DNA from: a virus
Reading direction: 5' to 3' (one strand)
Virus record (IMG/VR): IMGVR_UViG_3300045988_161114
Location: 1-64,000 of that record
Length of the DNA: 64,000 bases
Below are positions 241 to 48,552 of the stretch, one piece after another. The notes below the pieces were generated by a model that did not search any database, was not told the origin of the DNA, and saw nothing but the letters and a program-made list of their open reading frames with translations. Position 1 is the first letter of the stretch. Each line of letters starts with the position of its first letter. The position numbers were made by a program, and so were the translations under genes.

Positions 241-327
241 GCGAGAGTGGCGAAATTGGCGATACGTGTCTGCCTTAGAAGCAGATGTCCTAGTGGCGTG
301 TGGGTTCGAGTCCCACCTCGGGTACCA
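241..327 (+). tRNA. tRNA-Leu (anticodon TAG), type II, CCA encoded; acceptor stem imperfect
   Basis: Hand fold: anticodon stem tctgc/gcaga with loop cTTAGaa. T arm is gtggg-ttcgagt-cccac, and the D region tggcgaaattgg resembles bacterial tRNA-Leu. The 5' gcgagag against 3' ctcgggt leaves mismatches at 3-70 and 4-69. Confidence 0.55.
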
Positions 328-347
328 TATTTTTAATAGGTGTAATT

Positions 348-740: not shown

Positions 741-750
741 TTGTAGTAAT

Positions 751-839
751 GGAGGATAGGCTGCATGGCGTAGAAGCGGTCTTGAAAACCGTCCCACTGT
801 AGAGATACGGTGATGGTTCGATTCCATTATCCTCCTCCA
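751..839 (+). tRNA. tRNA-Ser (anticodon TGA), type II, CCA encoded
   Basis: Acceptor ggaggat/atcctcc. 3-bp D stem gct/agc. Anticodon stem gcggt/accgt with loop cTTGAaa. Long variable arm cactg..cggtg. T arm gatgg-ttcgatt-ccatt. Confidence 0.85.
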
Positions 840-929
840 GGTTAAATATCCTCGAATGCAGTATACGATTACATTTATTATGGTTAAATAAAGCGCAGTT
901 ATCGTTACATTTTTGTCGAGGACCCTATT

Positions 930-1370
930 ATGATAGAAGAAAAAGGATGGATGTATCAGATTGAAGAAGATTCTGATTATCCGTCATTTTTTTACAAGAA
1001 CAAAATTGGAAACAATTTTGTTTACATCAGTTTTGAATTTAATAGAAAATATAATAAGATTCCTGTTTATACTATTGCTGCTTATATTGGTAGGAAAAGA
1101 AATATTATAGAAACTTCTATGTATAGTAAAAGTATTACTGGTACAATAGGAGTGAGCGGACTTATTAAAATAAAAGAGTGTATTGATTTCTTCATTGAAG
1201 ATTTCTTTGATAATAATGATACTCTTATGATTTCTATTTATGGAACTGATCCTAAAAGAGATAAAGTATATGCTAGAACATTATCTCGTGATGGGTATGT
1301 TCAAAGTAATATATTGGGTAAGATAAAATCTTACTGTAAAGTGTTTCATAGGAATGCGGGTATGGTATAA
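930..1370 (+). CDS. hypothetical protein
   Basis: 146-aa ORF between tRNAs. Its last 15 nt overlap the 5' end of tRNA-Gly. No recognisable motifs. Confidence 0.6.
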   Translation: MIEEKGWMYQIEEDSDYPSFFYKNKIGNNFVYISFEFNRKYNKIPVYTIAAYIGRKRNIIETSMYSKSITGTIGVSGLIKIKECIDFFIEDFFDNNDTLMISIYGTDPKRDKVYARTLSRDGYVQSNILGKIKSYCKVFHRNAGMV

Positions 1371-1430
1371 GGGTTGTGCCTCGGTTTTCCACACCGATGA
1401 AGACAAGTTCAAATCTTGCTACCCGCTCCA
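1356..1430 (+). tRNA. tRNA-Gly (anticodon TCC), CCA encoded
   Basis: Acceptor gcgggta/tacccgc. Anticodon stem tcggt/accga with loop ttTCCac. T arm caag-ttcaaat-cttg. D stem gtat/gtgc has two G-U pairs. Confidence 0.8.
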
Positions 1431-1444
1431 CTAAAGGTTATAAA

Positions 1445-1633
1445 ATGACTCATCGTCAAAAAAGATTAAAAGATGTTGCAGCTCGTTTAAGTAAACGATT
1501 CTTCGTCCCTGAAGAATTACGAGCTAAATTGATTGAATTTCAAGAACGTGCAAATAGAGATGGCAAATTTGATTTTGAAGTCTTGTTTGATTTCAAAAAG
1601 AAACGTGTTCTTGATATTCGAGAAGTGAAATAA
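1445..1633 (+). CDS. hypothetical small basic protein
   Basis: ORF track 1376..1633 overlaps tRNA-Gly, so the ATG at 1445 after aaagg was chosen. Product: MTHRQKRLKDVAARLSKRFF... Confidence 0.5.
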   Translation: MTHRQKRLKDVAARLSKRFFVPEELRAKLIEFQERANRDGKFDFEVLFDFKKKRVLDIREVK

Positions 1634-1640
1634 TTTATAC

Positions 1641-1729
1641 GGAAGCTTGACAGAGTGGTAATGTGCCTGTTTGCTAAACAGAGTCCATGCGAGAGCATGA
1701 CATAGGTTCAATTCCTATAGCTTCCGCCA
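1641..1729 (+). tRNA. tRNA-Ser (anticodon GCT), type II, CCA encoded
   Basis: Acceptor ggaagct/agcttcc. Anticodon loop ttGCTaa. Long variable arm ccatgcgagagcatg. T arm atagg-ttcaatt-cctat. Confidence 0.8.
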
Positions 1730-1731
1730 TA

Positions 1732-1806
1732 GACGAGTTGGTATAGACAGATGTGCCACGGACTGCAAATCCGTAGAGGAAGGTGAAATTCCTTCACTCG
1801 TCTCCA
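1732..1806 (+). tRNA. tRNA-Cys (anticodon GCA), CCA encoded
   Basis: Acceptor gacgagt/actcgtc. Anticodon stem acgga/tccgt with loop ctGCAaa. T arm gaagg-tgaaatt-ccttc. Confidence 0.85.
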
Positions 1807-1811
1807 TATAT

Positions 1812-1881
1812 TGCGAATTAGTGTAACGGTAGCACACGAGGCTCATAACCTTGAGGTCCAGTTCGACTCTGTGGTTCGCAT
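1812..1881 (+). tRNA. tRNA-Met-like (anticodon CAT), short and non-canonical
   Basis: Acceptor tgcgaat/gttcgca. D stem gtgt/gcac. Anticodon stem cgagg/ccttg with loop ctCATaa. The variable loop is only ~3 nt and the T stem tccag/ctgtg has a C-U mismatch. No CCA. Confidence 0.5.
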
Positions 1882-1892
1882 CCGTTTTATAG

Positions 1893-1906
1893 ATTCTTTA
1901 GAGAAT
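1893..1906 (+). repeat. TTAG-loop hairpin (attct-ttag-agaat) followed by a T-run
   Basis: Copy of the recurring motif ATyCyTTAGrGrAT. It lies just after tRNA-Met and ~15 nt before GC-rich island A. Confidence 0.5.
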
Positions 1907-1920
1907 TTTTTATTTGCTTA

Positions 1921-2017
1921 AAAATTTTCAAAGCCCACGGCTCCGTACTATTCCGTACCCGTTTGGCGCATGACCCGCACGGACGTCGAGTACAACGCCA
2001 AGGCTCTTGAAAATTTT
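1921..2017 (+). ncRNA. candidate structured small RNA (GC-rich island A)
   Basis: A ~66-nt GC-rich core with no ORF, set in an AT-rich background. It is closed by a ~15-bp inverted repeat, aaaattttcaaagcc / ggct(c)ttgaaaatttt. The inner stem is ttggcg/cgccaa. It sits inside the tRNA cluster. Confidence 0.45.
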
Positions 2018-2041
2018 TTCTGGCTTTTAGTCAGATTTTTA

Positions 2042-2057
2042 CATTCCTTAGGGAATG
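2042..2057 (+). repeat. TTAG-loop hairpin (cattcc-ttag-ggaatg)
   Basis: Perfect 6-bp stem with a ttag loop, followed by AT-rich tract. Same motif family as 1893, 4473 and 38361. Confidence 0.5.
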
Positions 2058-2071
2058 ATATATTTATTTAT

Positions 2072-2123
2072 TTTTTGATTATCTGATCTGATCACAAGTG
2101 ATCATATCATATCTAATCAAAAA
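2072..2123. repeat. imperfect GATC-rich palindrome
   Basis: Outer arms are tttttgatta / taatcaaaaa and inner arms tgatcac / gtgatca. Three GATC sites fall within ~20 nt. Confidence 0.5.
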
Positions 2124-2144
2124 CAGGCATACGTCTGACTTTTA

Positions 2145-2220
2145 GGTTATTTAGTGTAGTCGGTTAGCACATATCCCTCATAAGGATATAGCAGTAGTTC
2201 AAGTCTACTAATAACCTCCA
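2145..2220 (+). tRNA. tRNA with CAT anticodon (Met or lysidine-Ile2), CCA encoded
   Basis: Acceptor ggttatt/aataacc. Anticodon stem tatcc/ggata with loop ctCATaa. T arm agtag-ttcaagt-ctact. Confidence 0.8.
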
Positions 2221-2226
2221 AGTATA

Positions 2227-2297
2227 GCTGCCATAATATAATGGTATTATATTGGCTTTGTAATCCAGGTATATAGGTTCGATTCCTATTGGCAACA
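2227..2297 (+). tRNA. tRNA-Thr (anticodon TGT)
   Basis: Acceptor gctgcca/tggcaac with one C-A mismatch. Anticodon loop ttTGTaa. T arm atagg-ttcgatt-cctat. No CCA. Confidence 0.6.
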
Positions 2298-8344: not shown

Positions 8345-9787
8345 ATGAATGAACATATAGTTTATAAAGCTGCTTTAAATTCTTTAAAGTATACTTTTGA
8401 AGATTTTGGATTATCTAAAACGTTTAAATATAATGGCGATCCTAATAATTTTACTAGGACATATAAGTCTCAAATTGGGAATTTAATTAAGCTTGCTTTT
8501 GAAACAGAAGCTGAATCTAATTCTATAAATTTGATTAATCTTAATAAAAATGTTACGATTACCCTTGAGAAAGTTATTATCAATATTGATGGCAGAGTTC
8601 AAATTGATTCTCTGCCTAGAACTGTAAATGATCTTCAAGATTATCAAAAAGGTGCTTATAAGTTTTTCTTATTTGTAAATTATCCTATGTTCTTTGGTAT
8701 TCAGAATATGTCTGCTGAAGAATTTAATGAGATTAAAAGAGCTAAAAGTTCTACTACTCATAGTGGCAAAATAACGCTAGATGGATATGATATTTGGTAT
8801 AAGGCTATCGGCGGCGATGCTTTTAAATCTGAATTTGCACATCATGTGTCTAAATATTCTGCTCTTTCACATGATGATGTAAGAATCAGCAATGATCAAA
8901 TAGATAATATTTTACAGCTTATTTATGCACATAACTTTATCATTGATGATTATAAAGATATAGATATTTCAAAGCTTAAACTATTTTTTGATGTTGCTAA
9001 TCTTCAATACATTAAAAATGAGAGCGGACTAACTGTTAATGGTTCTGCACCGCCTTTGTATAGAGATGACACTCTTAGTGAGATGAATCTCAATTACGCC
9101 GTTAATAGTGTTGGTGAAATTCCATATGCTGACCCTAATTTTGGATACCACATCTATGAAGGTTTTAATTATGATTTGGTATTAAATAGTGAGAATATGA
9201 AATGCCACAGAATTGATTATATGGCATATGGCTTTAATAACTATTCTACAAGAATGGGAATGGGTTATAAAAATCTTATTAGAACTACTAAATTTGATTA
9301 TTATGAAAGCGAATTTAGTAGAGATTATTCTGAATCACTATTGCTTCAAAAACTTTTTGTATTGTCAATTGTAGCATTAAATTTTGCTACTTTGTCTGGT
9401 GCTACTGCAAGTAACTTTAACAAAGATCAAATACTTAAGTATTATAATCAATTTTCTAATAATATTTCATGTAAGAATTTTTATATTGCCCGCGGTAATT
9501 TTGGACAATATAAAAATAGATTATTTGTTTCTAATAACCCTTCAGATACACCTGCAAATCTTTCATGGGATAATAAATTTTACGATACTACCTTGTTCTT
9601 ATTTAGCAATGATTATACAACAAAATTCTTCATAGTTAATAAGACTGAGGATATCAAAATTGGTATATCTAGACAATCTGGTTTTTATGACAGTATATTG
9701 ATTCCTCATGAAGATTATCTGAATCCTGATAAGCTTACTCCTATTATTAAAAATAGAACAAGAGAAATTTTAAATGCAATTAGATAA
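8345..9787 (+). CDS. hypothetical protein
   Basis: 480-aa ORF whose end overlaps the start of the E2-like gene by 14 nt (translational coupling). Confidence 0.75.
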   Translation: MNEHIVYKAALNSLKYTFEDFGLSKTFKYNGDPNNFTRTYKSQIGNLIKLAFETEAESNSINLINLNKNVTITLEKVIINIDGRVQIDSLPRTVNDLQDYQKGAYKFFLFVNYPMFFGIQNMSAEEFNEIKRAKSSTTHSGKITLDGYDIWYKAIGGDAFKSEFAHHVSKYSALSHDDVRISNDQIDNILQLIYAHNFIIDDYKDIDISKLKLFFDVANLQYIKNESGLTVNGSAPPLYRDDTLSEMNLNYAVNSVGEIPYADPNFGYHIYEGFNYDLVLNSENMKCHRIDYMAYGFNNYSTRMGMGYKNLIRTTKFDYYESEFSRDYSESLLLQKLFVLSIVALNFATLSGATASNFNKDQILKYYNQFSNNISCKNFYIARGNFGQYKNRLFVSNNPSDTPANLSWDNKFYDTTLFLFSNDYTTKFFIVNKTEDIKIGISRQSGFYDSILIPHEDYLNPDKLTPIIKNRTREILNAIR

Positions 9788-10535
9788 TGTCACTTTTAAA
9801 ATCGTAGATAATGATCTTGTAAATCTCGTTATCGAAGAGAATGGTAAAAAATCTACAAAAGTTGTTCAACTTAAAGATTTTATAACTGCTTTTACAGATT
9901 CTACTAGTGTAGAGGAAACTCCTCTTATGCCAGCATCTGTTATTAAATATTGGAAGAATGGTCCAAATACTGTTATCTTTTTGAATAAACCTGGAAGAAA
10001 CGTAGATATGATTTCTTCCTATTCTAAGGATCCCATTCCTATTCGTATTCCAAATACTGTTTATGCTTTAAAATTTAAAAATAATCGGTTAATTAAAACA
10101 ATTATTGGGTCTTATGATGACAAACGTTTGACTAAGAATACAAAAATTTTTAAATTTCCGATGCATAACTATAGTTCAACTTTTAGTCCTGGCATTTGTT
10201 GGGGCTCTAATTTTGATATGGTTGAATCTGTATGTGCAGGTATGGATCTCTTTAATATTGAAACAATACCAGACTTGTATTGGGCTAGTAAGTTCAATAC
10301 AGATTTAGGTGGTGATTGCAGTATTAAGGCTCCATTTGAAGAATTAAGAGAATCTGCGCTTAGAAATGGAATGCCAGAAGGTGTTATGGAGCAGGCATCT
10401 AGATTTAATAGATTTGTTAAACTTTGTGCATTAATGCGCTTTAATCCTGCATTAAAATTTGACGTTTCTAATTATCTGGATGGTGTATCAGCAGATAATT
10501 TGGAAGCTTTTATTTCTCTTAACTGTAGAGTATAA
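9774..10535 (+). CDS. E2/UBC-like protein (prokaryotic E2 family candidate)
   Basis: FPMHNYSSTFSPGICWGSNF resembles the UBC catalytic loop HPN-x(5-8)-G-x-I-C-L. The gene lies directly upstream of JAB and E1, the order seen in Bil/PRTRC-type operons. Confidence 0.5.
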   Translation: MQLDNVTFKIVDNDLVNLVIEENGKKSTKVVQLKDFITAFTDSTSVEETPLMPASVIKYWKNGPNTVIFLNKPGRNVDMISSYSKDPIPIRIPNTVYALKFKNNRLIKTIIGSYDDKRLTKNTKIFKFPMHNYSSTFSPGICWGSNFDMVESVCAGMDLFNIETIPDLYWASKFNTDLGGDCSIKAPFEELRESALRNGMPEGVMEQASRFNRFVKLCALMRFNPALKFDVSNYLDGVSADNLEAFISLNCRV

Positions 10536-10538: not shown

Positions 10539-11948
10539 ATGACAGTAACGAATACTACTATTGGTGGCAGCGATCAAGCTGCCGCTACTGCTAATCCGGC
10601 TCCTGTTATGAGTCTGGCTGCATTATCATCTCTTATTACTGGCGTTGAAAAACCTGAAGTCTTTATTGGCGAAAAAGGTAAAAAACGTGGTGATATTTCT
10701 ATAATGCAGGACGGTATGTACCGTATTTTTTCTTCGCCTATTGGCGACTTTTTTATTCTTAAAGACGAATTTAAGAATAAGCTTTTCCACCTGCCTGAGG
10801 GCAAAGTTACATTTACTCCTAATCCTGATTTCCCTAAAATTCCAGGACGTTATTATAAAGCTATTTGTGATTTTTATAAAACCATTTATGCTACCAATAA
10901 GAACGAAGTAATGGCTCAAATCTGGTGGGATAAAGAACTAAAAGAATTCTTTATTGAGGTTCCTGTTCAACGTGTTGCTGCTGCTAGTATTTCTTTTGAT
11001 AAAACTGGTCCATTCTATGATGACCCTAATAAGGTCCTTGTAGTAACAAGTCATTCTCATCATACTATGGGTGCTTTTTATAGTGGAACTGATAAATCTG
11101 ATGAAGCTAAACACAATGGTATTTATTCATTTGTATTTGGCGGATTAAAAATTAATCCTGATGGTACTTATACTAACACTACAGTACAGCGTTGTGTTTA
11201 TGATAAGTATGAGTTTTTACTTCAATTGTCAGATATTTTTGATTTAGAGGATCCTCTTATCGGGACTATTTCTATTCCTGAAAGTGAATATTCTAAAGTT
11301 ACAGCAATTAATGCTGCCCCTAAATATCCTTCTCATTTGACTGGATATTCTTATGGTAAAACTGGCAGTAATTCTAATGTCAAAAAAGGTGGCCATCAAC
11401 ATTACAATGGTAAAGGATGGAAACCAGGCATTGATTATAATCTTTGGGATTATGATTTTGCTGACGAAGATTATTCTGATCTTTATAATTCTGTAATGTC
11501 CGTAAATAATAATAATCCTGGCTATGGGCATAATCCATTCCCTCATCCTGTTAAGATGAATATGTGGGATTATGTTGACCCTGTTGATTACGATGGAATT
11601 TTTGAACAATATTGCGGTGACTCAACTGGATTTACTACAGAAGAAATTCAAGAAATTTATAAAGCCGGCTCAGTCATTATAGACATTTTGCAGAAAAAAG
11701 CTGGCAGTTATGACAAAAATTGTTGTCTTGTACAATCGTTCATAGATACAATTGCTAGCCATGATGTGTCTGATAAACTTGAAAAAACAATTTTTAATGG
11801 CTTAATGCATGGTATTCATGCATATATGCTTAAAAGTAGTAAAGCTATAGATGAAGACATTGACTCTTTTGTAGAAGAGATAGGAATGGTTAGGTATAGT
11901 ATTCAAGACTGTATTGTTAAAAAAGACCCTTTTAAAAACGTTCCATAG
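10539..11948 (+). CDS. JAB/MPN (JAMM) metallopeptidase domain protein with long C-terminal extension
   Basis: Glu in FFIEVPVQ, then VVTSHSHHTMGAFYSGTD, which gives H-x-H-x7-S-x2-D, the complete JAMM motif. 469 aa. Confidence 0.75.
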   Translation: MTVTNTTIGGSDQAAATANPAPVMSLAALSSLITGVEKPEVFIGEKGKKRGDISIMQDGMYRIFSSPIGDFFILKDEFKNKLFHLPEGKVTFTPNPDFPKIPGRYYKAICDFYKTIYATNKNEVMAQIWWDKELKEFFIEVPVQRVAAASISFDKTGPFYDDPNKVLVVTSHSHHTMGAFYSGTDKSDEAKHNGIYSFVFGGLKINPDGTYTNTTVQRCVYDKYEFLLQLSDIFDLEDPLIGTISIPESEYSKVTAINAAPKYPSHLTGYSYGKTGSNSNVKKGGHQHYNGKGWKPGIDYNLWDYDFADEDYSDLYNSVMSVNNNNPGYGHNPFPHPVKMNMWDYVDPVDYDGIFEQYCGDSTGFTTEEIQEIYKAGSVIIDILQKKAGSYDKNCCLVQSFIDTIASHDVSDKLEKTIFNGLMHGIHAYMLKSSKAIDEDIDSFVEEIGMVRYSIQDCIVKKDPFKNVP

Positions 11949-11955: not shown

Positions 11956-11979
11956 TGGGGCCTAGTGCCCCATTTTTTC
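11956..11979 (+). terminator. rho-independent terminator
   Basis: Stem tggggc / gcccca, loop ctagt, then tttttt. Confidence 0.6.
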
Positions 11980-12002: not shown

Positions 12003-13676
12003 ATGAGTATTTATAGAGAAGTAAAAGATAGTTCATCTCAAACGTATCAAATTATTAGTGATGAACAACGTCAACGTACAGACTTTTTAAATAAAAAAGC
12101 CGAAGAGATTGGCAAGAAGGCCTTTTTGAAAGGCGGCTTGCAATATCTATTTTCTGTAAAAGATTTGAATAAATTTTATACAGATCCTACACCTGAAATT
12201 AAATTAGGCAAAGTAACTGTAATTGGATGTGGCGGTACTGGTTCATGGTTAATGCCTAAGTTGGCTAAAACTATTAATGATTTAATTCGTAAAAATATTA
12301 TTTTTAAAGACAGTTTTTGTTTAAATCTTGTTGATTTCGACACGGTTAACCTGATTTTTCTAACCGGCCGTGTATAAATTTGCCCTAATTGACTTGGACC
12401 TCTGGCATAACAGAAAACAAGGCGCAAGCAGAGGTTATCCCTCGTGCAGCGTGAACGACTAATGCGGGTGAACACTTAATTGTGAAGCGATAGTCTGTAC
12501 TGCATCGGAAATATGCGATTAAGAGATGCAGAGCAAGGCGGAACAGAAACGACCTTGCCCTTACTTTATGTAAGAGTAACAATAAGCGAAACTAAAAATC
12601 TTGTGCGGCAGAACTTTATTGAGGCTGATATTGGTAAAAATAAAGCTGAAGTAATGGCTATGCGTTATGGATCTACGTTGTCTGAAGGTACTCAATGTGT
12701 ATTTTATGACAAGTATCTTGCACTAGATCCTTCTAAAAAAGAACATCCAGAAGCGTTTATCTCTTTTGATGATGTTTTAGGTTCTACAATTAATAAAAAT
12801 AAATTTGTTAGTGTTATTTTCAATCTTGTGGATAATGATGTTGAGCGTCGTGAATTACATAAATGGATTCGTGATTCTAGATCTCCATACATAGTTATTG
12901 ATATTGGGAATGAACAGACTCATGGTCAGTTATTTGCGTCATATTATAATATGGCTAATATTGATCAGTCATATGAAAAATATGTCAAGAATGTTCCATT
13001 GATTCTTCAAGACTCTTTTGCTGAATATAATCAAGCGATTATTACATCAGATGAAGATGTAGTTGTATTCTCATGTGCAGAAGCTGATGTTTCTGAAGAA
13101 TTTCAAGATCAATTTTTAGTGGCAAATGATGTTGCAGCAACTGTTGGTCATTCATATTTTGTTACATTAATCGATAATCTCACTAAGCATAGATTTACAA
13201 GTCCTTTGCCTCAAGAGATTCGATTTAGTGCAATGTCTCCGGTTCTAGTAACTACTGAACGCAAAGTTTACAATGAGCATGTTCTTTCTTGTATTGAATC
13301 TGCAATTAAGCTTAAAGAAGCTATTGGTGAAGACCAAGTAAAAAGACTGTTTGATATCTTTGATAAAGTTATTTCTTCTCAAAGTTCTTTTGCTTCTAGC
13401 AATAATACTATCAGGATTATTCCTGAAGATGAAAGATGTTATGGCTGGTTTTCTGATTTTATCGATAGAAATATCGGTAATAAAAAGATCAACAAAGAAC
13501 TCAAAAAGCAATTACTAGATGCATGTGCCCCCTCAATGGCTTATCGTACCGGATATCCTAATAACTATAGAGTCAATTATTATGAAATTGATAAAGATTA
13601 TGGCCAATATCTTGGTTATTCTTTAGCCCTTCTTTATTGCGTTTATTCTGTTTTAAAGATTGCTCAATACATTTAA
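12003..13676 (+). CDS. ThiF/MoeB/E1-like adenylyltransferase, two exons: join(12003..12346,12587..13676)
   Basis: Rossmann motif VTVIGCGGTGSW. The spliced junction gives LVDFDTV|ETKNLVRQNFIEADIGKNKAEV, which restores the E1 motif D-x-D-x-V-E-x-x-N-L-x-R-Q...DIGxxKA. Unspliced, exon 1 runs into a stop codon. Confidence 0.75.
12347..12586 (+). mobile_element. group I intron (ORF-less, 240 nt) in the E1-like gene
   Basis: A GC-richer block splits a conserved motif. The exon ends in U (acggt|) and the intron ends in G (aataag|c). Core-like gcgatagtctgtactgcatcgg resembles the gatatagtctgctctgcatgg region of the T4 td intron. Confidence 0.75.
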
Positions 13677-13685
13677 TTAAAACAA

Positions 13686-13719
13686 GCCTGCACTAAATTT
13701 AAAAGTGCAGGCATTTTTA
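13686..13719 (+). terminator. rho-independent terminator
   Basis: Stem gcctgcact / agtgcaggc, then atttttatt. Confidence 0.7.
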
Positions 13720-13734
13720 TTATAAGAAAATAAT

Positions 13735-15834
13735 ATGTATAGATATATTACAGATAATAAGTTTTGGTATTCGCTTGTTGTTGTTACTTCTGGATATGCT
13801 AATAAGTGCTCTTTGATCTTAGATCAAATTATTAAAGGCGAATCCGCTATCAATAAGGACTTAGGTCAAAAATGTTATATTAAGAATAGTAAAGAAAACG
13901 TTACTAAATCTATAAACTTATTGAACCAATGTGTCAACAAGAATAAGTTTCGGGAAATGTACTTCCCCGATTTTGGTAGTAGAGCTGAATTATTAAATGC
14001 TTACTCTATTGTATCTGAATTTTTATCTGATTTTGCCGATACCATTCTGTTTAGAAATTATACAAATAGAAAGGGTCGCAAAATCACTGCAATGAATACT
14101 CTTTTATCTGAAGAAGATAGAGAGAATATAAAATATTTTCATCGGTTATATACAGCTATATTTGAATGTGAATATGATAGAGCACTTCACAATATGTGTT
14201 TGAGCGCCAATGTAATTGGGTTTAGAAAAAGCATGAGCATCGCTAATACTGTACATATGCTCAAATTTAATCGTATTGAAATTATAAATATAGACATTGC
14301 TAAATTTTTTAACAATGTTGATATGAAGAAATTTTTTGATAATGATGTTGTAAATATTCTTTTTAATTCTATTTTGGGTAATAAATATGAATATTTAGAA
14401 TATTTATTTGATAAGCCGCTTAATGTCTTTTCTTTGGATTATTCCAATAAGAATCCTAAAGATTTTGTAAGTTGCCCACCGTCTTTTAAATTTAATGGCA
14501 GTGATGTTATTTCTATAGTACCCTCTTTTGGCGGTACTGCTTTTATTCAAAGAAGGTCGAATAATGATAAGGCAAGATATGGAAGAATGTACAGCTTCTT
14601 ATTGTCTAACTCATCTAATGTTGGCAGTATTTATAAAGTAAATGATTCAGGTTATTCAATAAGATTAAGAGATCCTGGTATTCCAGATAAAAGGGAATTT
14701 TTCCTTCAATTCTTTTATCGAACTCTATCATTCTTAATGCATAATAATAAACTTCCCACAGGTGCTTCTTATAGTCCCGTCTTGAGTAATATATTTTTAC
14801 TTGATTTTGATATAAAGCTCAAAAAACTTCTCGATTCAATGTCTGTAAATACGAGATATAATTTTATTAGGTATGCTGATGATATAACTATTTATACTTC
14901 CAAGAAGAATATTATTAGTGAAACTGTTCTTCCTACTGATGGACGTATTAATTTATATCCTAATACAGATGATATTATTAGTTCTGACAATGAAATAGAT
15001 TTTTCTGTTGCTAAAAGAGTTGAAGAGCTTATTAATCAATACGGACTGTATTTAAATTATAGCAAGACTAAGATTTTTAGAAGGCATGAAGAAGCTTCTA
15101 TTTTAGGCTTAACTATACCAGCTGTTGATAAAGCTACTATTAGCGATATAAAAATCGGATCTTCAAGAAGAAAAGAAATGATTGATTTAATTTCTAATTC
15201 TTTAGATTTCGATTATGATTCTAAGACTAAAGGATTTTTATCCTATTGTATTACTAATGGCGGAATGAGAGATTTTGTGATTCATCATGGTATGAATTCT
15301 AAATTGAATGACCCTAGTTTAAAAAATATCTTTGAAAAGTATTTCAATAAGTCATCTTTTAATAGCTTCAGAGAATTGTTTTATGACATATCTAAAGATT
15401 CTAAGACTATAAGAATTACCATATTTAATGATCTTATCAGAATAAATTTCCATAATAGACTGGTAAATCATTATATGCATAATATAACTGTCAGGAAAGA
15501 TATAAATGTTTCTGAATTCTTTATTGCTCATGGTGACATATTTAATAATATAACTGTTTCCGAATTAAGACTTATGCTTATATATTATATAATGTATAAA
15601 GAATTTATATTTATTGGAAGTTATTTACGAAGAGATGAGGATAGAGTAAGGTTGTTACTTAAGTCTTATACACGAATGGGAAGTGTTATTGCTTTCCCGC
15701 TGGATGTATATTCTGACGCTATTAATGAAGAGTCCTATTATTCCGATTTAAGAAATATTTTTGAAGGCGATGAAAAAGCTTTAGAATATATAGATTTATT
15801 TGAGGCTATTGAAAATAGCAGAGGGGTAAATTAA
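13735..15834 (+). CDS. reverse transcriptase (stand-alone, 699 aa, unclassified lineage)
   Basis: RT motifs in order: A NIDIAKFFNNV; B LPTGASYSPVLSNIFLLDFD; C FIRYADDITIY; D/E LYLNYSKTKIF and ILGLTI. There is a ~170-aa N-terminal extension, an unusually long A-B spacer and a ~230-aa C-terminal extension. Confidence 0.85.
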   Translation: MYRYITDNKFWYSLVVVTSGYANKCSLILDQIIKGESAINKDLGQKCYIKNSKENVTKSINLLNQCVNKNKFREMYFPDFGSRAELLNAYSIVSEFLSDFADTILFRNYTNRKGRKITAMNTLLSEEDRENIKYFHRLYTAIFECEYDRALHNMCLSANVIGFRKSMSIANTVHMLKFNRIEIINIDIAKFFNNVDMKKFFDNDVVNILFNSILGNKYEYLEYLFDKPLNVFSLDYSNKNPKDFVSCPPSFKFNGSDVISIVPSFGGTAFIQRRSNNDKARYGRMYSFLLSNSSNVGSIYKVNDSGYSIRLRDPGIPDKREFFLQFFYRTLSFLMHNNKLPTGASYSPVLSNIFLLDFDIKLKKLLDSMSVNTRYNFIRYADDITIYTSKKNIISETVLPTDGRINLYPNTDDIISSDNEIDFSVAKRVEELINQYGLYLNYSKTKIFRRHEEASILGLTIPAVDKATISDIKIGSSRRKEMIDLISNSLDFDYDSKTKGFLSYCITNGGMRDFVIHHGMNSKLNDPSLKNIFEKYFNKSSFNSFRELFYDISKDSKTIRITIFNDLIRINFHNRLVNHYMHNITVRKDINVSEFFIAHGDIFNNITVSELRLMLIYYIMYKEFIFIGSYLRRDEDRVRLLLKSYTRMGSVIAFPLDVYSDAINEESYYSDLRNIFEGDEKALEYIDLFEAIENSRGVN

Positions 15835-16607
15835 TGCAAAATGTTTATATTATAGCTGATAAGGTTTCTAATGCTGATATAGAAGATATTAAAAAAGTCT
15901 TGTCATTTATTGGTATTTCTGAAAGCTTTATCAAAGTGTTAGATGTATCAGCCACAGATATTGATATATCTGATAAAAAATTATTTATCTGCTTTAATAG
16001 TCTCTTTGGCGTAATTGCCCGTAAGTTTATTGAAGCTAAGATTTATAAAGCAAAAGATCTTTTAAATGGTGCGATAGTAGACAGAGATCGTGGCGTTTTG
16101 TTATATGGTCTTACTGGATGTATTAAAGAGTATGCATCTAGTATTGCTGTAAATGATGATAAGATGCAACTCTGGGAATTGCTTCAGGATTTCAAAAAGA
16201 ATCTTGAATCTTTTAGTGCTCCACAAGAGCCTAAGAAAGAGCCTGAAATACATGATAATGGATCATTTGAATTAGTAGAAGATCCATTGGAAAAAGAATT
16301 AGGCTCTAAAAAACAAGATGAAGTAATAACAAATTCAGAAGAATTAGTATCAATAAATGTAGAGGATCTTCTCAATAAGGTTTTGGAAGAAATAAAACTT
16401 TCTGATCCTGGCTTGGGTAAGTCTCTTAAACTGACAAATAGGATATCCCTGACTAATAGTGATGGTAAAGTCCTTAATATTTACCCTGGCAATGTTATTG
16501 ATGATAAAATTCCTGGGGCACATTTGTCTTACAAAGACATGTGCAATATAGTAAAAATGGCTTTAATTTATGGTTCAGACAAAATTGATTTCTGGATTAA
16601 GGATTAA
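15834..16607 (+). CDS. hypothetical protein
   Basis: 257-aa ORF. Its start overlaps the RT stop codon (ttaatg). Confidence 0.7.
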   Translation: MQNVYIIADKVSNADIEDIKKVLSFIGISESFIKVLDVSATDIDISDKKLFICFNSLFGVIARKFIEAKIYKAKDLLNGAIVDRDRGVLLYGLTGCIKEYASSIAVNDDKMQLWELLQDFKKNLESFSAPQEPKKEPEIHDNGSFELVEDPLEKELGSKKQDEVITNSEELVSINVEDLLNKVLEEIKLSDPGLGKSLKLTNRISLTNSDGKVLNIYPGNVIDDKIPGAHLSYKDMCNIVKMALIYGSDKIDFWIKD

Positions 16608-16609: not shown

Positions 16610-16990
16610 ATGGAAACACTTACTACTATTAATGGTGATGGAATAATTGCTACAAGTGGTGAAAGCTCTTCTGAGCTTTCTACTACGCCTCCTAATAATT
16701 TGGATATATTAGATGTTGTATCTGCAGAACATAAAGATGATTCTGTAGATTATAAATCACCTGAAGATAGTCCTACTACATTTAGTAGAGTAAAACCTGA
16801 AGTAGAGTATTTTGACATCCGCTTTAATAATAACGGAGCATTAGAATACAATACTAATATGGATATATATAAAGCTCTTGGCGCTATTGATGTTGTAAAA
16901 ACTCAAATAATGAAGAATATTACATCTGCTGGTGATACTCGTAGTGTAATCGATACTGCACTAGAGAATTATTTCATGGGCCGTAAATAA
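16610..16990 (+). CDS. hypothetical protein
   Basis: 126-aa ORF, tightly packed against its neighbours. Confidence 0.65.
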   Translation: METLTTINGDGIIATSGESSSELSTTPPNNLDILDVVSAEHKDDSVDYKSPEDSPTTFSRVKPEVEYFDIRFNNNGALEYNTNMDIYKALGAIDVVKTQIMKNITSAGDTRSVIDTALENYFMGRK

Positions 16991-16991: not shown

Positions 16992-17513
16992 ATGGCCTAT
17001 TTTGCTGGTGTAGATATATCTATATCATCAACTGGTATTGCTGTCGTTGAGTATCTCGGCGACAGCAAATTTAGACTTATTGATAAGAAAACTATTAGCC
17101 CTTCAAGACATTCCAAAGGATTTGACAGAAAGCTGGAAAATTATCAAGTGTTTAAATTTTATACTGAAAATTTTTCTGCTGCACAAGGAATATCATTCTT
17201 TGTTTTGGAAAACTATAGTTACGGGTCGCCAGGTAAGATAGCTGATCTTGGTGAACTTGGAGGCTTGTATAGATTTCAAATAGTCAATAATCTTAAAAAA
17301 TCATTTGATGTATTGGCACCTCAATCTGTTAAAAAGATTGTTGCTGGAAGCGGTAGAGCTACTAAAGAAGAAGTAAGAGATTCTCTGTCTAAATATATTG
17401 TAGATTTTGAATCTATAAGTTTCAATAATTATGATGAATCTGATGCTGTAGCTATTGCCGTTGCTTATGGACTTTTATTTGAAAAGAATAATAATGAACA
17501 AAGTAAAAGTTAA
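16992..17513 (+). CDS. ruvC: RuvC-like Holliday junction resolvase
   Basis: FAGVDISISSTGIAVVE (Asp), FVLENYSYG (Glu) and YDESDAVAIAVAY (Asp-x-x-Asp) are the RNase H-fold catalytic residues, in RuvC order. Confidence 0.6.
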   Translation: MAYFAGVDISISSTGIAVVEYLGDSKFRLIDKKTISPSRHSKGFDRKLENYQVFKFYTENFSAAQGISFFVLENYSYGSPGKIADLGELGGLYRFQIVNNLKKSFDVLAPQSVKKIVAGSGRATKEEVRDSLSKYIVDFESISFNNYDESDAVAIAVAYGLLFEKNNNEQSKS

Positions 17514-18303: not shown

Positions 18304-20868
18304 ATGGCAAGAGTTGCAAAAGAAGTAAAAGAAGGCAAAGAAATAGTTGCCGAAAGTAGTTCTACTATATCTAAAGATGATAGAGCTGCGATAGAAATAC
18401 TGAAAAGAAGTATGAATAAAAAGTATGGTGATGGCGATCAAGTATTCATAACAGATTATGATATGGATCTTGAAGGTATCCCTACTGGTAGTGCAATATT
18501 GGATGCTCTTATTGGTAATGGTGGTTGGGCAGAAGGACGTGTTCATGAAATTCATGGGCAATCAGGTAGTGGTAAATCCTCTATTGTTACATTGACTTGT
18601 GCTAATGCACTTAAGAAGCATCCTGATAAATTTATACTATACATTGACGCAGAGCAAGCACAAAACTTCCGCTATATGAAGTTACTTGGACTTGATATGG
18701 AAAAAGATGATAGAATTCTTTTTACTCAGGTTAATTCTGCTGAAGAAGCATTTGATATTATAAATAATTCTATTAAAACAGGTGCATTTAGTCTTATCGT
18801 TTTAGATAGTGTGCCTGCAATACAAACTAAACGTGAAATGAGTGGTGATTTCACTCAAGAAACTATGGCCGAGAAGGCTAGGTTCCTGTCTAAATCTATC
18901 CCTCAATTATTGAAACCTCTGAAACGTTCTAATACTACTCTGATCTTTGTTAATCAAGTAAGGGACAAAATGGATCTTTGGGGTGGGATGGTAACTCCAG
19001 GTAATATAAGCTTTTATTTTTTGACATATCATGTTATAATAGTCTTAATATAGAAAACATTAATTGTTTTAATTTTAAGGTTATAATATGAGATGGTCAA
19101 AATCTGAAGACGATATAATAATTGATTTTATCAGAAATACAAATAATAGAACATTCAAAGATTTACATGAGATGTTTCCAGATAGAACTATATATTCTAT
19201 AAAAATGAGATACCGGTATCGTAAAAGAAATATGTCTGGTAATTATATAACAAAAATCTGGACCAAAGATAAAATAAATATTTTACTCGAAAATTATACT
19301 AATAAAAATATATATGAACTTAGTGAAATTCTCGATATTAAATATTCTACTATTCATGCTAAATTAAGGGATATGAATTTAGTCCCTAAACAAATATTAA
19401 AAAGCTATACAGAAGAAGATGATTTATTTATAAAGGAAAATTATAAAAAAATTAAAACTTCTGATATTGCTTTTGAACTTAAAGTATCTCCCGATGCTAT
19501 TATTCAGAGAGCAGCAAAATTAGGACTTAATACATCTAAAACTAAAAATTATACTGAAGATGAGAAAATTTTTATAATTGAAAATTATTCTAAAATTCCT
19601 ATTGCTGAAATTTCCAAAGTAACTGGAAGAAGTTATTCTTCTATAAATAGTTTTGCTAGAAGAAATAATTTAATTCCGTATAGTAAAATACTGTATGAAA
19701 ATAATGTTAAATTTATTTTGGAAAATTATGAGTCAATGACAGATTCCGAGATATCAAGAAAAATTTCTTTATCAATAGATGCTGTTGAAAATATCCGGAA
19801 AAATCATGGGATATATAAGTCCCCTGCGTTAATTAATGGGATTTCATCTATTGAAAAATTTGTAAAAAATGTTCTTGACGAATTATCCATTAAATATGTT
19901 TATTGTGCAGAACTTGGAAATTTTAAACCTGATTTTCTTTTAGAAAATGGTAAAATTATCGAAGTTAATGGTGATTATTGGCATTGTAATCCTCGTATTT
20001 ATGGCAATGGGCCAGAAGATGAGATACAAGTTAAGCATGTATTAAGAGATTATTCTAAGAAATGTTATTATTTGTCAAATAATATCGATTATATAGAGGT
20101 CTGGGAACATGATATTAATCATAACCCAAACCTAATTGTCGAACAGATAAAGGCTTTCTGCCGTTCATAGTAGAAATATTATGAATTATTATAGCGGAAT
20201 TAAGCGAGAAAATCCTCCCTGTTTCATAGGACAACTCGAACCGAAGGCTAGCTTTAAAAGGCTGGTCAGGGGCAACGCATAGAAGCTGAAACTAATAAAA
20301 AGAATATAATGCTTCCACGAGGCCGCTATACCTAAGTCTTTTTAGATATGGTAAAAAAATATGCTGAACTACATTGTAATGATGTAGAAGCAAAGATAAA
20401 AAACTTTGCGATAACAAATTGGGAAGAGCAATTCCATTTTACTCAAGTACACGTGTTAAAGTTAACTCTACTCCATCTATGCGAATAAAAGGATTAAATG
20501 ATAATTATATTGGCCAAAGAGTAGAATTTTCTGTTGTTAAAAATAAAGTTGGCAATCCGTTTGGCGTTGCTGAAAGCAATCTTTATTTTGGTGTAGGTTT
20601 TAATCCTGTTGAAGAATTAGTTTCTACAGCTGTTAAAGCTGGTATTATCACTAGGGCTGGTTCATGGTTTACTATCCCAGTTAAAAATGATAAAGACGAA
20701 TATATTAAATGTCAGGGTGAAAACGGCTGTTGTGTTTATTATAAAGAGCATCTAGATCATTTAGAAGAATTAAGACAAATTGTTAATAAACATAAAGATT
20801 CTATTTTTGATCAAATGTCTGATGAAGATGTAAAAGAGGCATCTGAAAGTGAAGTATTAGATGAGTAA
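18304..20868 (+). CDS. recA: RecA-family recombinase, two exons: join(18304..19002,20422..20868)
   Basis: IPTGSAILDALIGNGGWAEGRVHEIHGQSGSGKSS (Walker A) and LIFVNQVRDKM. The spliced junction GMVTPG|GRAIPFYSSTRVKV restores the RecA motif TTGGNALKFYASVR. Confidence 0.85.
19003..20421 (+). mobile_element. group I intron (1419 nt) carrying a homing-endonuclease ORF
   Basis: The exon ends in U (ccaggt|) and the intron ends in G (aaattg|gga). The 3' ~250 nt (ggaattaagcgagaa...ccacgaggccg...aaatatgctgaac) is clearly homologous to the ORF-less dnaE introns at 29686 and 30414. Confidence 0.85.
19088..20170 (+). CDS. intron-encoded homing endonuclease: five HTH repeats plus a Vsr-like/PD-(D/E)XK nuclease domain
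   Basis: Five ~45-aa repeats (WSKSEDDIIIDF.., WTKDKINILLENY.., YTEEDDLFIKENY.., YTEDEKIFIIENY.., YENNVKFILENY..). These are followed by FKPDFLLENGKIIEVNGDYWHCNP...IEVWEHD. Confidence 0.65.
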   Translation: MRWSKSEDDIIIDFIRNTNNRTFKDLHEMFPDRTIYSIKMRYRYRKRNMSGNYITKIWTKDKINILLENYTNKNIYELSEILDIKYSTIHAKLRDMNLVPKQILKSYTEEDDLFIKENYKKIKTSDIAFELKVSPDAIIQRAAKLGLNTSKTKNYTEDEKIFIIENYSKIPIAEISKVTGRSYSSINSFARRNNLIPYSKILYENNVKFILENYESMTDSEISRKISLSIDAVENIRKNHGIYKSPALINGISSIEKFVKNVLDELSIKYVYCAELGNFKPDFLLENGKIIEVNGDYWHCNPRIYGNGPEDEIQVKHVLRDYSKKCYYLSNNIDYIEVWEHDINHNPNLIVEQIKAFCRS

Positions 20869-46598: not shown

Positions 46599-46606
46599 TT
46601 CTTTTT

Positions 46607-48424: not shown

Positions 48425-48552
48425 TATATTATTCCTTGTTAGTGGGGCAACCCATTTTAAGTGGGCGCCCCTTTATAAAAGATTATCTAAACTCCCCAAA
48501 TAGATATAAAACTACCTTGCCTGTTTTATACCATTAGTTTAGATTTTCTTTT

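Follow-up and report, generated by a model that had tools for sequence, protein, structure and literature searches.

The analysed window, a 64-kb stretch of viral DNA from a genome of ~180 kb, encodes a reverse transcriptase (RT) directly downstream of a cassette of ubiquitin-like (Ubl) conjugation genes, and this raises the question of what kind of RT it is and what it may do for a phage. To our knowledge, prokaryotic RTs outside mobile introns are almost all either bacterial defence genes or the RTs of DGRs, which diversify phage tail fibres. A sequence-only reading had called the gene an orphan, stand-alone RT of the Abi/UG/DRT type, and neither half of that description held up. The best explanation, put forward here tentatively, is that the gene may be a domesticated, retron-derived RT which would make a cDNA or ssDNA product together with two partner proteins, p257 and p126, for use in phage-host conflict. 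No description of an RT placed between an E2-JAB-ThiF cassette and two such partner genes could be found in the literature. The locus is made up as follows, with related loci designated by L numbers.

8345..9787, + strand: p480, the conserved first gene of the cassette, syntenic in L001, L002, L003 and L007, with no family match
9774..10535, + strand: E2-like gene (Prok-E2_D, Pfam PF14460, 26.2 bits against a cut-off of 25)
10539..11948, + strand: JAB/JAMM peptidase-like gene with the motif HSHHTMGAFYSGTD, H-x-H-x7-S-x2-D being readable in the translation
12003..13676, + strand: ThiF/E1-like gene, the next one upstream of the RT, interrupted at 12348-12587 by an insert of ~240 nt (tblastn with the intact ThiF of L001)
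13686..13723, + strand: GC-rich hairpin and T-run, terminator- or attenuator-like, 22 nt before the RT start codon
13735..15834, + strand: RT gene of 699 aa, an ORF with ATG and a Pfam RVT_1 match, with a retron-like catalytic core and clade-specific extensions
15834..16607, + strand: p257, a conserved two-domain partner whose start overlaps the RT stop
16610..16990, + strand: p126, a small conserved partner whose N-terminus is disordered and acidic/Ser-rich and whose C-terminal Lys is invariant (alignment)
16992..17513, + strand: RuvC-like resolvase, the first of the downstream recombination genes (Pfam RuvC, 32.8 bits; PHROG 159, E=4.7e-22)

That the protein is a genuine RT with motifs A, B, C and D/E, as first read from the sequence, is borne out by a Pfam RVT_1 match of 52.4 bits (cut-off 29.6, E=7e-14) and by motifs 1-7, which are all intact and include a YADD catalytic box. 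Motif 1/2 (FRNYTNRKGRKITAMN) lies N-terminal to motif A (NIDIAKFFNNV, aa 185-195) and is followed in turn by motif B (LPTGASYSPVLSNIF, aa 340-354), motif C (RYADDITIY, aa 379-387), motifs D/E (YGLYLNYSKTKIF, aa 436-448) and RT7 (SILGLTI, aa 455-461). The large N- and C-terminal extensions noted earlier are likewise present, and the protein divides into seven regions.

13735..14034, + strand: N-terminal helical domain, aa 1-100, pLDDT 85-95, the most constrained part of the protein and confined to this phage RT clade
14014..14319, + strand: fingers, with motif 1/2, a region X carrying a degenerate NAXXH (SIANTVH), and motif A with the catalytic D187
14380..14688, + strand: variable A-B insert, aa 216-318, pLDDT <50
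14752..14895, + strand: palm, with motif B and with motif C and its catalytic D382/D383
14905..15000, + strand: hypervariable loop joining motif C to motif D, aa 391-422, pLDDT <50
15001..15369, + strand: motifs D/E, RT7 and a helical thumb
15370..15831, + strand: divergent C-terminal extension, aa 546-699, with pLDDT <50 at residues 544-666

Homologues of the RT numbered 27 in a word-indexed search and 45 representatives at E<=1e-30 in an exhaustive search, and the catalytic residues are invariant across family members at 25-97% identity. The residues conserved throughout the family alignment comprise T103, F106, R107, R115, I117, N121, G162, D187, I188, K190 and F191 in the fingers and N337, P341, T342, G343, Y346, S347, P348, S351, N352, R379, Y380, D382, D383 and T385 in the palm. 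A dN/dS of ~0.14 for the whole gene indicates purifying selection, with 0.01-0.07 in the N-terminal domain and 0.04-0.07 in the palm. Given the homologues, the invariant catalytic residues and the dN/dS values, the observation of this RT lies far beyond chance, and the enzyme is predicted to be catalytically competent.

The remaining regions of the RT are far more variable. Against the subgroup at 65% identity, the N-terminal domain retains 83-99% identity, with K46 invariant, while the A-B insert (aa 226-300) and the C-terminal extension retain 31-46% and 23-54%; dN/dS is 0.16-0.61 in the A-B insert, 0.76-1.13 in the C-D loop and 0.21-0.51 in the C-terminal extension. Most of the C-D loop is missing from a 678-aa subgroup (21 aa deleted). 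The A-B spacer had been singled out as unusually long at ~140 residues, and it is indeed long, with 154 residues between the motif A Asp and motif B, but the insert is short or missing in the members P0018, P0020 and P0026 (RT alignment), and a spacer so variable and poorly constrained is not family-defining. Structure prediction, which had been proposed for the extensions, yields a helical N-terminal domain and leaves the C-terminal extension and the inserts too poorly modelled for interpretation, with no alpha-repeat domain recognised; no known domain is fused to the RT in Pfam. The variability of the surface loops and the C-terminal extension, at dN/dS of up to ~1, is an observation in favour of a role in conflict.

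By sequence and by modelled fold, the RT is placed nearest to retron RTs, beneath every curated family cut-off. Its best PADLOC models are retron RTs (RT_II-A and RT_III-A, about 55-61 bits, palm only), its best NCBIfam match is retron_St85_RT (NF038233, 74.7 bits against a cut-off of 235), NF038237 reaches 52.4 bits against 450, the best PDB sequence matches are Ec78, Ec86 and Ec67, and the best fold matches of the model are retron Eco2, Ec86 and Ec78. Retron RTs carry a region X, NAXXH, between RT2 and RT3, of which the H is most conserved, and a region Y, a VTG triplet in RT7, of which the G is most conserved (PMC7736814). Region X of the window RT reads SIANTVH, i.e. N-x-x-H, one residue short; the H is kept in most family members and the full NAMLH occurs only in P0027. 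In place of the VTG of region Y stands ILG, within SILGLTI, in which G458 alone is invariant.

The assignment to the Abi/UG/DRT type fares less well, and membership of these groups was rejected, their models and structures ranking below those of retron RTs and no fused domain being present. The best such model, Drt2, scores 39.6-41.3 bits against a cut-off of 390 (39.6 bits in PADLOC), beneath the retron models, and the structures of Abi-P2, AbiA, DRT4 and DRT9 occupy fold ranks 19-45. Superinfection exclusion by a DNA polymerase of Abi/UG type (AbiK, Abi-P2 and DRT4 are examples), working without a template or primed by a protein, would fit the failure to find a template RNA, the large C-terminal extension modelled as helical, the presence of those four structures among the fold matches and the precedent of UG27 for a phage-borne UG-type RT. 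The model scores and structure ranks nevertheless favour retrons, and the C-terminal extension is poorly predicted, variable and devoid of a recognised alpha-repeat, so that this explanation is considered very unlikely.

Membership of the group II introns was also rejected, in agreement with the sequence-only reading. The group II RT/maturase model TIGR04416 scores 48.5 bits against 300, in the palm only; the RT has no maturase or HNH Pfam domain; no group II family of Rfam occurs around it at the gathering threshold or at E<=1; and the ORF is directly flanked by coding genes.

Among the RT systems of phages DGRs are the most frequent, and their RTs carry the motif 4 signature I/LGxxxSQ. The absence of a nearby template/variable (TR/VR) repeat pair, remarked upon earlier, is upheld for the 64-kb window, in which neither a TR/VR-like direct repeat nor a repeat of any 13.6-16 kb segment was detected, and the RT does not cluster firmly with DGR RTs. 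Its motif B (PTGASYSPVLSN) is of the SP type, SYSPVLSN being the retron/group II form rather than I/LGxxxSQ, and no Avd-like gene is found among the RT neighbours (ThiF and p257; Pfam, PADLOC, NCBIfam and PHROG), nor does one or a template repeat adjoin the RT in any locus. DGR membership was rejected within the window. The searched 64 kb form part of a ~180-kb genome, and a DGR with its repeats elsewhere, for example in a tail-fibre gene, would be extremely improbable, the HMM, PDB and fold matches all favouring retrons.

Retrons are defined by an RNA gene, and the region upstream of the RT is relevant in this regard. The spacer comprises 58 nt (13677-13734) and holds a hairpin (GCCTGCACT/AGTGCAGGC, 13686-13712) with a T-run after it, as had been read from the sequence. 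This hairpin is not specific to the RT. Sites built alike from unrelated sequence occur in L001, L002, L003, L005, L006 and L007, a similar one lies between JAB and ThiF (11956-11972), and the hairpin is missing where ThiF and RT overlap; from its sequence and recurrence it is judged to be generic intergenic punctuation of this genome.

The earlier statement that no retron msr/msd is evident was confirmed. There is no contiguous msr/msd, the spacer containing only the terminator-like hairpin, and no a1/a2-flanked non-coding region was found in the 64-kb window or beside the RT; the same search detected the repeats in L055, L053, L072 and L038, and for the L055 type the fold of the ncRNA was confirmed as well. 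Rfam, at the gathering threshold and at E<=1, returned no retron, group II or group I family for the window, only tRNAs and two chance sRNA matches. Comparison of +-10 kb with seven divergent loci revealed no conserved non-coding nucleotides, the matches being coding apart from a shared ThiF insert, which is absent from many RT-bearing loci and therefore cannot be an obligate partner. Two further candidates were discarded: a retron RNA overlapping the 3' end of ThiF, where only short AT-rich chance inverted repeats occur and the folding signal (z = -2.2) is owed mostly to the terminator hairpin; and the gaps past the partner gene in L080 and L081, which encode a Zn-ribbon ORF rather than an RNA. 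The empty search for a template RNA, by way of a spacer of 58 nt or none, Rfam, a1/a2 repeats and the +-10 kb comparison, is an observation against a role in conflict.

A functional retron with its msr/msd supplied in trans, whose msDNA would hold p257 and p126 as an effector pair, could be envisaged from the retron-type core with the region X H and region Y G kept, from the two tightly coupled downstream genes in an effector-like arrangement, and from the genuine retrons which adjoin the same cassette in other phages. In all characterised retrons, however, the ncRNA is contiguous with the RT, and none is contiguous in the clade loci; the 64-kb window holds no candidate, and the RT has ILG for VTG and a degenerate NAXXH. 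A retron of this kind is regarded as unlikely.

The two downstream genes had been suggested as partners of the RT, and their conservation directly after it makes p257 and p126 plausible in that role on sequence grounds. The RT stop and the ATG of p257 overlap as TAATG (15832-15836), and the next two genes (16610.. and 16992..) follow with gaps of 2 nt and then 1 nt. The p257 family is confined to this phage clade, always directly follows the RT and evolves at a dN/dS of 0.04-0.10; its model has a pLDDT of 70, a fold search against the PDB gave no significant match (best E = 0.23) and a profile search against PDB sequences gave none. The p126 gene is syntenic in all loci examined, where its size is p~110/126, and it has no Pfam match and no significant match in a PDB profile search (best E = 0.12).

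Its neighbourhood, which recurs in each of the related phages examined, contradicts the description of the RT as an orphan. All ~25 related loci examined (L001-L003, L005-L008, L076-L083 and L084-L097), which lie on contigs of 120-198 kb with RT identities down to ~25%, preserve the order E2-JAB-ThiF-RT-p257-p~110/126 within a replication/recombination module. In the window and in each of these loci, an RT with the conserved N-terminal domain stands between ThiF and a p257 homologue on a large phage contig; ThiF and RT overlap or abut in L080, L081 and L083, with overlap in L080 and L081. The clade phages encode DnaE and RecA, and their structural genes gave no PHROG matches. A relative of the RT was found neither in the 185,579 species-representative bacterial and archaeal genomes of GTDB nor among GenBank phages (tblastn with the RT; megablast with 8-22 kb). 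Judged from this distribution and synteny, the RT is a fixed gene of an uncultivated clade of ~120-200 kb phages and appears to be inherited vertically. Counter-defence genes are usually patchy and lie in variable regions, and the universal presence of the RT in the clade, inside a replication/recombination module, is an observation that speaks against conflict.

Directly downstream of the RT block lie RuvC, p174 and RecA, suggesting that the RT could be a polymerase of phage replication, recombination or repair, acting with RuvC, RecA and a Whirly-type ssDNA-binding protein in gap filling, microhomology-mediated end joining or primer synthesis. G2L4 RTs, which are group II intron-like, act in bacterial double-strand-break repair, and the fold search matched G2L4 and group II RTs at ranks 14, 24 and 25. 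In favour of such a polymerase are the fixed place of the RT upstream of these genes in every clade member, the fact that it would require no dedicated ncRNA, as fits the absence of one, and the strong purifying selection on the RT core. The RT nevertheless evolves much faster than the replication genes: between the window and L001 it is 68% identical (64-78% for the RT and Ubl cassette together), compared to 90-97% for RuvC, p174, RecA and DnaE, so that by sequence its divergence resembles that of the Ubl cassette and not that of the latter genes. It is also nearest to retrons rather than to G2L RTs and has YADD, G2L4 being reported with YIDD. Finally, in L078 and L079 two extra genes part the RT block from RuvC, which suggests that the tight unit of the RT comprises ThiF, p257 and p126 and not the recombination genes. 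A repair polymerase is accordingly possible but doubtful.

In the cassette upstream of the RT, the JAB gene scores 22.4 bits with Prok-JAB and 42.1 bits with PRTRC_A, and the window ThiF 34.7 bits with PRTRC_ThiF and 16 bits with ThiF, all four under cut-off; the ThiF of L001 has a Pfam ThiF match. In CBASS, E1/E2 conjugates the C-terminus of a polymerase and JAB reverses the conjugation. By analogy, reverse transcription could be obligatory and under ubiquitin-like regulation, with E2, ThiF and JAB conjugating or processing the RT or p126 and thereby switching on a DNA product that the phage needs either to disarm host immunity or in recombination-dependent replication; if so, a domesticated retron would serve a whole clade of large dsDNA phages as a core viral enzyme, under a control like that which type II CBASS exerts on its cyclase. 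This reading is quite unlikely. RT is lacking from 62 of the 80 phage JAB-ThiF loci, and no other polymerase occupies the slot after ThiF there, so the link between RT and cassette could be simple synteny. A CBASS-like logic in which E1, E2 and JAB control a polymerase was tried and rejected on the same observation.

The domesticated retron-derived RT tentatively preferred here would trace back to the retron branch among prokaryotic RTs. It would since have shed the msr/msd RNA gene that once adjoined it, gained its N-terminal helical domain, variable surface inserts and C-terminal extension, and become fixed after ThiF, leading into the RuvC/RecA recombination genes. In infected cells it may act with p257 and p126 to synthesise a DNA product, either on an RNA template that another phage locus or the host supplies, or in a self-primed reaction. 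That product would serve phage-host conflict, as counter-defence, decoy or a means of competitor exclusion, rather than bulk genome replication, and the Ubl cassette, presumably co-expressed with the RT, may act on or with it. All characterised retrons known to us act in phage-host conflict.

Whichever function applies, the lineage is unusual in being a phage-confined, vertically inherited core gene across deep divergence, one that is without the RNA gene defining its nearest relatives and shares an operon with ubiquitin-like conjugation enzymes and two partners. If counter-defence were its role, retron biology would reach the virus side of the conflict; were it replication or repair, no earlier case of an RT with a demonstrated housekeeping role in a dsDNA phage would be known to us. 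The association of retron-type RTs with JAB-ThiF cassettes across several phage groups appears to have gone unremarked, and RT, p257, p126, E2, JAB and ThiF constitute a concrete, expressible and testable gene set. New RTs with unusual priming are also of practical interest for genome-editing tools.

Several known systems resemble the clade in part. UG27 is a class 2 UG/Abi RT of gut phages with a predicted three-stem-loop ncRNA in the spacer adjoining the RT, and its authors proposed a non-defence or anti-defence role (Mestre et al. 2022, PMC9226505). Like the clade RT, it is phage-borne and associated with two or three uncharacterised protein clusters (337/346 in UG27). Compared by description only, UG27 belongs to UG/Abi and not to the retrons, its spacer ncRNA has no counterpart in the clade spacer, and ThiF, JAB and E2 are unmentioned for it. 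The E1/JAB cassettes of PRTRC type, found in plasmids and jumbo phages, are matched under cut-off by the upstream genes (PRTRC_A and PRTRC_ThiF), and jumbo phages in culture also carry homologues, one example being Acinetobacter phage ME3, in which the gene is annotated as 'PRTRC system protein A'; no ParB-related gene was seen in the clade locus, and we know of no PRTRC system that includes an RT. In type II CBASS, a CD-NTase shares one operon with the Cap2 E1/E2 and the Cap3 JAB (PMC10097602). The clade locus similarly may be seen as a nucleotide-polymerising enzyme in an operon with E1-like, E2-like and JAB genes, in analogy only; its polymerase is an RT and not a CD-NTase of Pol-beta fold, the system is phage-encoded, and the C-terminal residue is not consistently Gly or Ala across RT family members (alignment).

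Genuine retrons adjoin JAB-ThiF in four other phage locus groups (the L055, L033, L053 and L041/L054 types), an observation which speaks for a role in conflict, and the order JAB-ThiF-RT is shared with the clade in three of the four types. At 250-438 aa their RTs are compact, and they reach 110-180 bits with retron models, unlike the clade RT, and their loci lack p257 and p126. In contrast to the clade loci, L055, L038, L053 and L072 carry an a1/a2-flanked ncRNA of ~300 nt, and one of them has RNase H. A specific kinship with these RTs was rejected, the profile scores giving the clade RT no preference for the compact, ThiF-linked retron RTs over the remaining retron RTs, so that shared descent of the modules is not supported. 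With the retron RTs at large (Ec86/Eco1, Ec78/Eco7 and Ec67/Eco2), the clade RT has in common motifs 1-7 with YADD, the G of region Y and, in most family members, an H in region X, and its tightly coupled downstream genes stand where retron effectors do. It differs in the lack of a contiguous msr/msd and of a1/a2, in the replacement of VTG by ILG, and in being ~380 aa longer on account of the N-terminal domain, the A-B insert, the C-D loop and the C-terminal extension. While retrons are mobile defence genes of bacteria, the clade RT is a core gene exclusive to phages.

The reverse transcriptase (RT) is encoded by an ORF of 699 aa (13735..15834, + strand), and the claim of the sequence-only reading that all of the quoted RT motifs are present is confirmed by translation and by a Pfam RVT_1 match of 52.4 bits (cut-off 29.6).

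Motifs of the window RT
Upstream of motif A: motif 1/2, clear, FRNYTNRKGRKITAMN
aa 185-195: motif A, NIDIAKFFNNV
aa 340-354: motif B, LPTGASYSPVLSNIF
aa 379-387: motif C, RYADDITIY
aa 436-448: motifs D/E, YGLYLNYSKTKIF
aa 455-461: RT7, SILGLTI

In an RT alignment spanning 25-97% identity, the catalytic Asp residues never vary, nor do about 30 further positions. Nei-Gojobori comparison with three relatives gives an overall dN/dS of 0.14-0.26. The lowest values are those of the N-terminal domain (0.01-0.07) and the palm (0.04-0.07), a loop of 32 codons between motifs C and D reaches 0.76-1.13, and the A-B insert and C-terminal extension are intermediate between the core and this loop. Sequence divergence is concentrated in the same regions as the raised dN/dS. 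The AlphaFold2 model (mean pLDDT 60.6) is good in the core but drops below 50 at residues 216-318, 392-418 and 544-666; the poorly modelled regions are the divergent, weakly constrained ones, and the A-B spacer is accordingly a variable insert. The unusual length of this spacer, remarked on previously, holds at 154 residues, but it is not a family hallmark, as it is short or absent in some members. Judged from its sequence, the RT is a working gene.

The RT is an intact enzyme of the retron lineage with clade-specific domains. All lines of evidence favour the retron branch, although none reaches membership. Retron RT models are the top PADLOC matches, at about 55-61 bits and over the palm only, while the NCBIfam scores are 74.7 for retron_St85_RT (cut-off 235), 52.4 for Ec67 (450), 48.5 for group II (300) and 41.3 for Drt2 (390). 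The Ec78, Ec86, Ec67 and St85 RTs come first when the family profile is compared with PDB sequences. Two retron hallmarks are the NAXXH of region X and the VTG of region Y (Mestre et al. 2020, PMC7736814). The RT has N-T-V-H in region X, one residue shorter with the H kept, and I-L-G in region Y, where the G alone is kept. Its motif B belongs to the SP type, whereas the SQ type is diagnostic of DGR RTs. A Foldseek search of the PDB with the RT model places retron Eco2, DRT2, retron I-A, Ec86, Eco7 and Ec78 at the top, and G2L4, Abi-P2, DRT9, group II RTs, DRT4 and AbiA at lower ranks; an Abi-like, template-independent enzyme is considered very unlikely.

The description of the RT as an "orphan" is not borne out, as the order E2-JAB-ThiF-RT-p257 is fixed in relatives at every distance. 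The genes concerned in the window are:

8345..9787: p480, first gene
9774..10535: E2, ubiquitin-like (Ubl) cassette
10539..11948: JAB, Ubl cassette
12003..13676: ThiF/E1-like, Ubl cassette
15834..16607: p257, directly 3' of the RT
16610..16990: p126
16992..17513: RuvC

A word-indexed search recovers only 27 RT homologues, whose contigs reach about 185 kb apart from one of 353 kb, and an exhaustive profile search 45 representatives at E<=1e-30. Contexts were inspected by distance (L001, 65% identity; L002, L003 and L005, ~25-35%) and by RT-profile score (L006 and L007, ~240-400 bits; L080-L083, ~190-215 bits), and all show the order (p480)-E2-JAB-ThiF-RT-p~257-p~100-126, with DHFR, ThyA, HU, AdoMet_dc, SpoVG and Whirly upstream and RuvC, a 92-aa gene, a ~172-aa gene, RecA, PRA-PH and a DnaE PHP fragment downstream. 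In the window, the stop of the RT and the start codon of the next gene overlap as TAATG, and later genes are packed with gaps of 1-2 nt. Start-to-stop overlap through five genes, E2 to p290, in L081 indicates one operon. In L078 and L079 two extra genes part p111 from RuvC, making JAB-ThiF-RT-p257-p111 the tightest unit. A ThiF-anchored IMG/VR scan adds 14 further clade loci (contigs of 120-188 kb), and E2, JAB, ThiF, RT, p257 and RuvC are present in 14/14. The RT is a core gene, inherited vertically, with its position fixed between ThiF and p257. No family member was found in GenBank phages or in 185,579 species-representative genomes; as sampled, the family is phage-exclusive and rare in curated collections. 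The "gap" after the p257 homologue in L080 (5727-5966) and L081 (10246-10462) encodes an unannotated small zinc-ribbon protein (CxxC...CxxC).

Several genes of the window are interrupted. ThiF (12003-13676), intact in L001, is broken by a ~240-nt GC-richer insert (12348-12587) without an Rfam match, which also occurs in L007 at the identical site (75% nucleotide identity) and is probably a small self-splicing intron. The RecA-like gene (18304-20868), uninterrupted in L001, is split into 18304-19017 and 20422-20868 by a ~1.4-kb insert with a 360-aa ORF (19088-20170; Myb-like DNA-binding N-terminus, nuclease-like C-terminus), which resembles an intron that carries a homing-endonuclease-like gene. 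Three non-coding blocks are 73-78% identical, 20157-20380 in the RecA insert and 28624-28673 and 29691-29849 flanking ORF 28874-29707, a piece of DnaE in which an intein-like stretch scores below cut-off; replication genes are thus interrupted by several related intron-like elements. On the minus strand, six large ORFs (527-1211 aa) in 46600-64000 have no PHROG match at 1e-5; 54537-56123 (-), a large ORF without a PHROG match, is probably a structural gene, in which ten copies of a 43-nt unit (55045-55714), set apart by multiples of 21 nt, resemble a protein repeat of the heptad type. Going by these sequences, this lineage has a virion module very remote from those of described phages.

Rfam identifies seven tRNAs in the window and no other family. 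The tRNA genes (two Ser, two Met and one each of Leu, Gly and Thr) are clustered at the start of the window (241-2297). At E<=1 over 6-22 kb, no relevant hit appears. Convincing a1/a2-type bracketing repeats are absent from all 16 non-coding gaps of at least 100 nt, the bigger of which are intron-like regions. The ThiF 3' end and spacer were rejected as a retron RNA, with just chance AT-rich inverted repeats there. The absence of a retron-like msr/msd beside the RT thus stands for the gaps, ThiF 3' end and spacer alike. The RT is without an adjacent RNA partner, and a retron RNA encoded in trans is considered unlikely. The reported lack of a DGR-style template/variable repeat near the RT extends to the whole 64-kb window, where no TR/VR-like direct repeat was found; a DGR with distant repeats is most improbable. 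The 58-nt spacer 5' of the RT ATG does carry a terminator-like element, as ascribed to it, in which a GC-rich hairpin of 9 bp precedes a T-run. In relatives the ThiF-RT spacer is 47-131 nt, always with a GC hairpin and T-run of unrelated sequence, and in more distant relatives ThiF and RT abut or overlap. A site of the same kind lies between JAB and ThiF in the window, and such sites are 3.5-fold enriched in this region; the hairpin is read as ordinary terminator/attenuator punctuation.

An RT-anchored IMG/VR scan yields 67 loci with generic retron-type RTs in other phages, 26 with a ThiF gene within 1-3 kb, in four layouts:

L055-type, 17 closely related loci: 505 aa, JAB-like (HSHVDFGVTPSSRD), ThiF, ~300 nt, RT 411, 112 aa
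L033/L036/L038-type: RNase H between ThiF and RT in L033
L053/L072-type: retron-type RT with nearby ThiF
L041/L042/L054/L069-type: RT...JAB-ThiF-small ORF

These RTs score 110-180 bits against retron models, and Pfam gives 73.7 bits for ThiF, 153 bits for RNase H and 24.8 bits for Prok-JAB, slightly below the 25-bit cut-off. The RNase H gene (L033 4690-5118), found in one phage group, would be suited to msDNA maturation. Perfect inverted repeats lie at both ends of the ~300-nt spacers in four loci on gut-phage contigs, where ncRNA and RT are directly 3' of the ThiF (and JAB-like) genes.

Retron ncRNA genes upstream of retron-type RTs, with spacer repeats
L055 5052-5355: AAATCGTGAT...ATCACGATTT
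L053 1569-1876 and L072 3652-3970: CTATTACAA...TTGTAATAG
L038 5082-5412: TGTGATGTT...AACATCACA

The L055-group RNA folds so that a helix of 10 bp closes it; its 5' part, which has two hairpins, is invariant, and its central region varies, with compensatory changes. This is the msr/msd layout, indicating genuine phage-borne retrons. By profile score, the ThiF-linked RTs are no closer to the window RT family than other retron RTs. This result and the RT-less loci described next limit what the association implies.

JAB-ThiF occurs without any RT within 6 kb in 62 of the 80 ThiF-anchored phage loci, where ThiF is followed by unknown ~250-aa proteins or ordinary replication or nucleotide-metabolism genes and no polymerase was seen. 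JAB homologues are also encoded in cultured jumbo phages without the window-type RT. This makes the Ubl cassette a widespread module of large phages, with the RT fixed beside it in the clade only. PRTRC-like JAB-ThiF pairs are widespread in large and jumbo phages, both in IMG/VR (L098-L163) and among the GenBank phages (Vibrio D69/D181/D148, Acinetobacter ME3, Bacillus KLEB27-3 and Salmonella Arash), usually in replication/nucleotide-metabolism regions and usually without an RT. From the operon structure alone, regulation of the RT by the E1/E2/JAB cassette, as in type II CBASS, would be an attractive analogy, weakened by the slot after ThiF in RT-less phages, which holds no other polymerase.

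Neither p257 nor p126 has a match above threshold in Pfam, PHROG, PADLOC, NCBIfam or PDB sequences. The p257 family, restricted to the clade and always directly after the RT, has two conserved domains separated by a variable acidic linker, with GKSL, NIYP, G-x-H and KDM among its invariant residues; the N-terminal half of its model (pLDDT 70) is flavodoxin-like, with no significant match among PDB structures. In p126 a disordered N-terminus is followed by a short conserved core, and the C-terminal Lys is invariant. This Lys is the last residue in 5/5 aligned lineages (window 16610-16990 and homologues), often 1-3 residues after Gly, and might be a processing/conjugation site for the JAB/E1 enzymes.

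Protein identities between the window and L001 separate a fast set (RT 68%, p480 64%, ThiF 71%, JAB 78%, E2 83%, p126 72%) from a slow one (p257 89%, RuvC 96%, p174 97%, RecA 90%, PRA-PH 90%, DnaE 94%). The tempo of the RT is therefore that of the Ubl cassette, unlike that of the replication/recombination enzymes, although its catalytic core and N-terminal domain are strongly constrained. A recombination or repair polymerase, the main rival explanation, would account for an RT that is universal inside a replication/recombination block and for which no template RNA was found, and is possible but doubtful. A role in phage-host conflict is tentatively favoured because of the retron ancestry, the fast-evolving surface regions, the tempo common with the Ubl cassette and the true retrons adjoining the same cassette in other phages. 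The RT, p257 and p126 would together make a DNA product.

The architecture, genomic role and partners of this RT lineage of retron descent are new, while its function is what we infer, and the lineage would come as a surprise to experts on prokaryotic RTs and phages. No published link of an RT with ThiF, JAB or E2 in phages was found in the literature, nor a retron-ThiF/JAB association of the L055/L053/L038/L072 kind, and Mestre et al. (2020, PMC7736814) list no retron type with ThiF/JAB/E2. The nearest published concept, compared by published description only, is UG27, a class 2 UG/Abi RT carried by phages and accompanied by a spacer ncRNA and by clusters whose function is unknown, for which the authors propose either a role other than defence or one in anti-defence (Mestre et al. 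2022, PMC9226505). Whereas the window RT is without a spacer RNA, UG27 possesses one.
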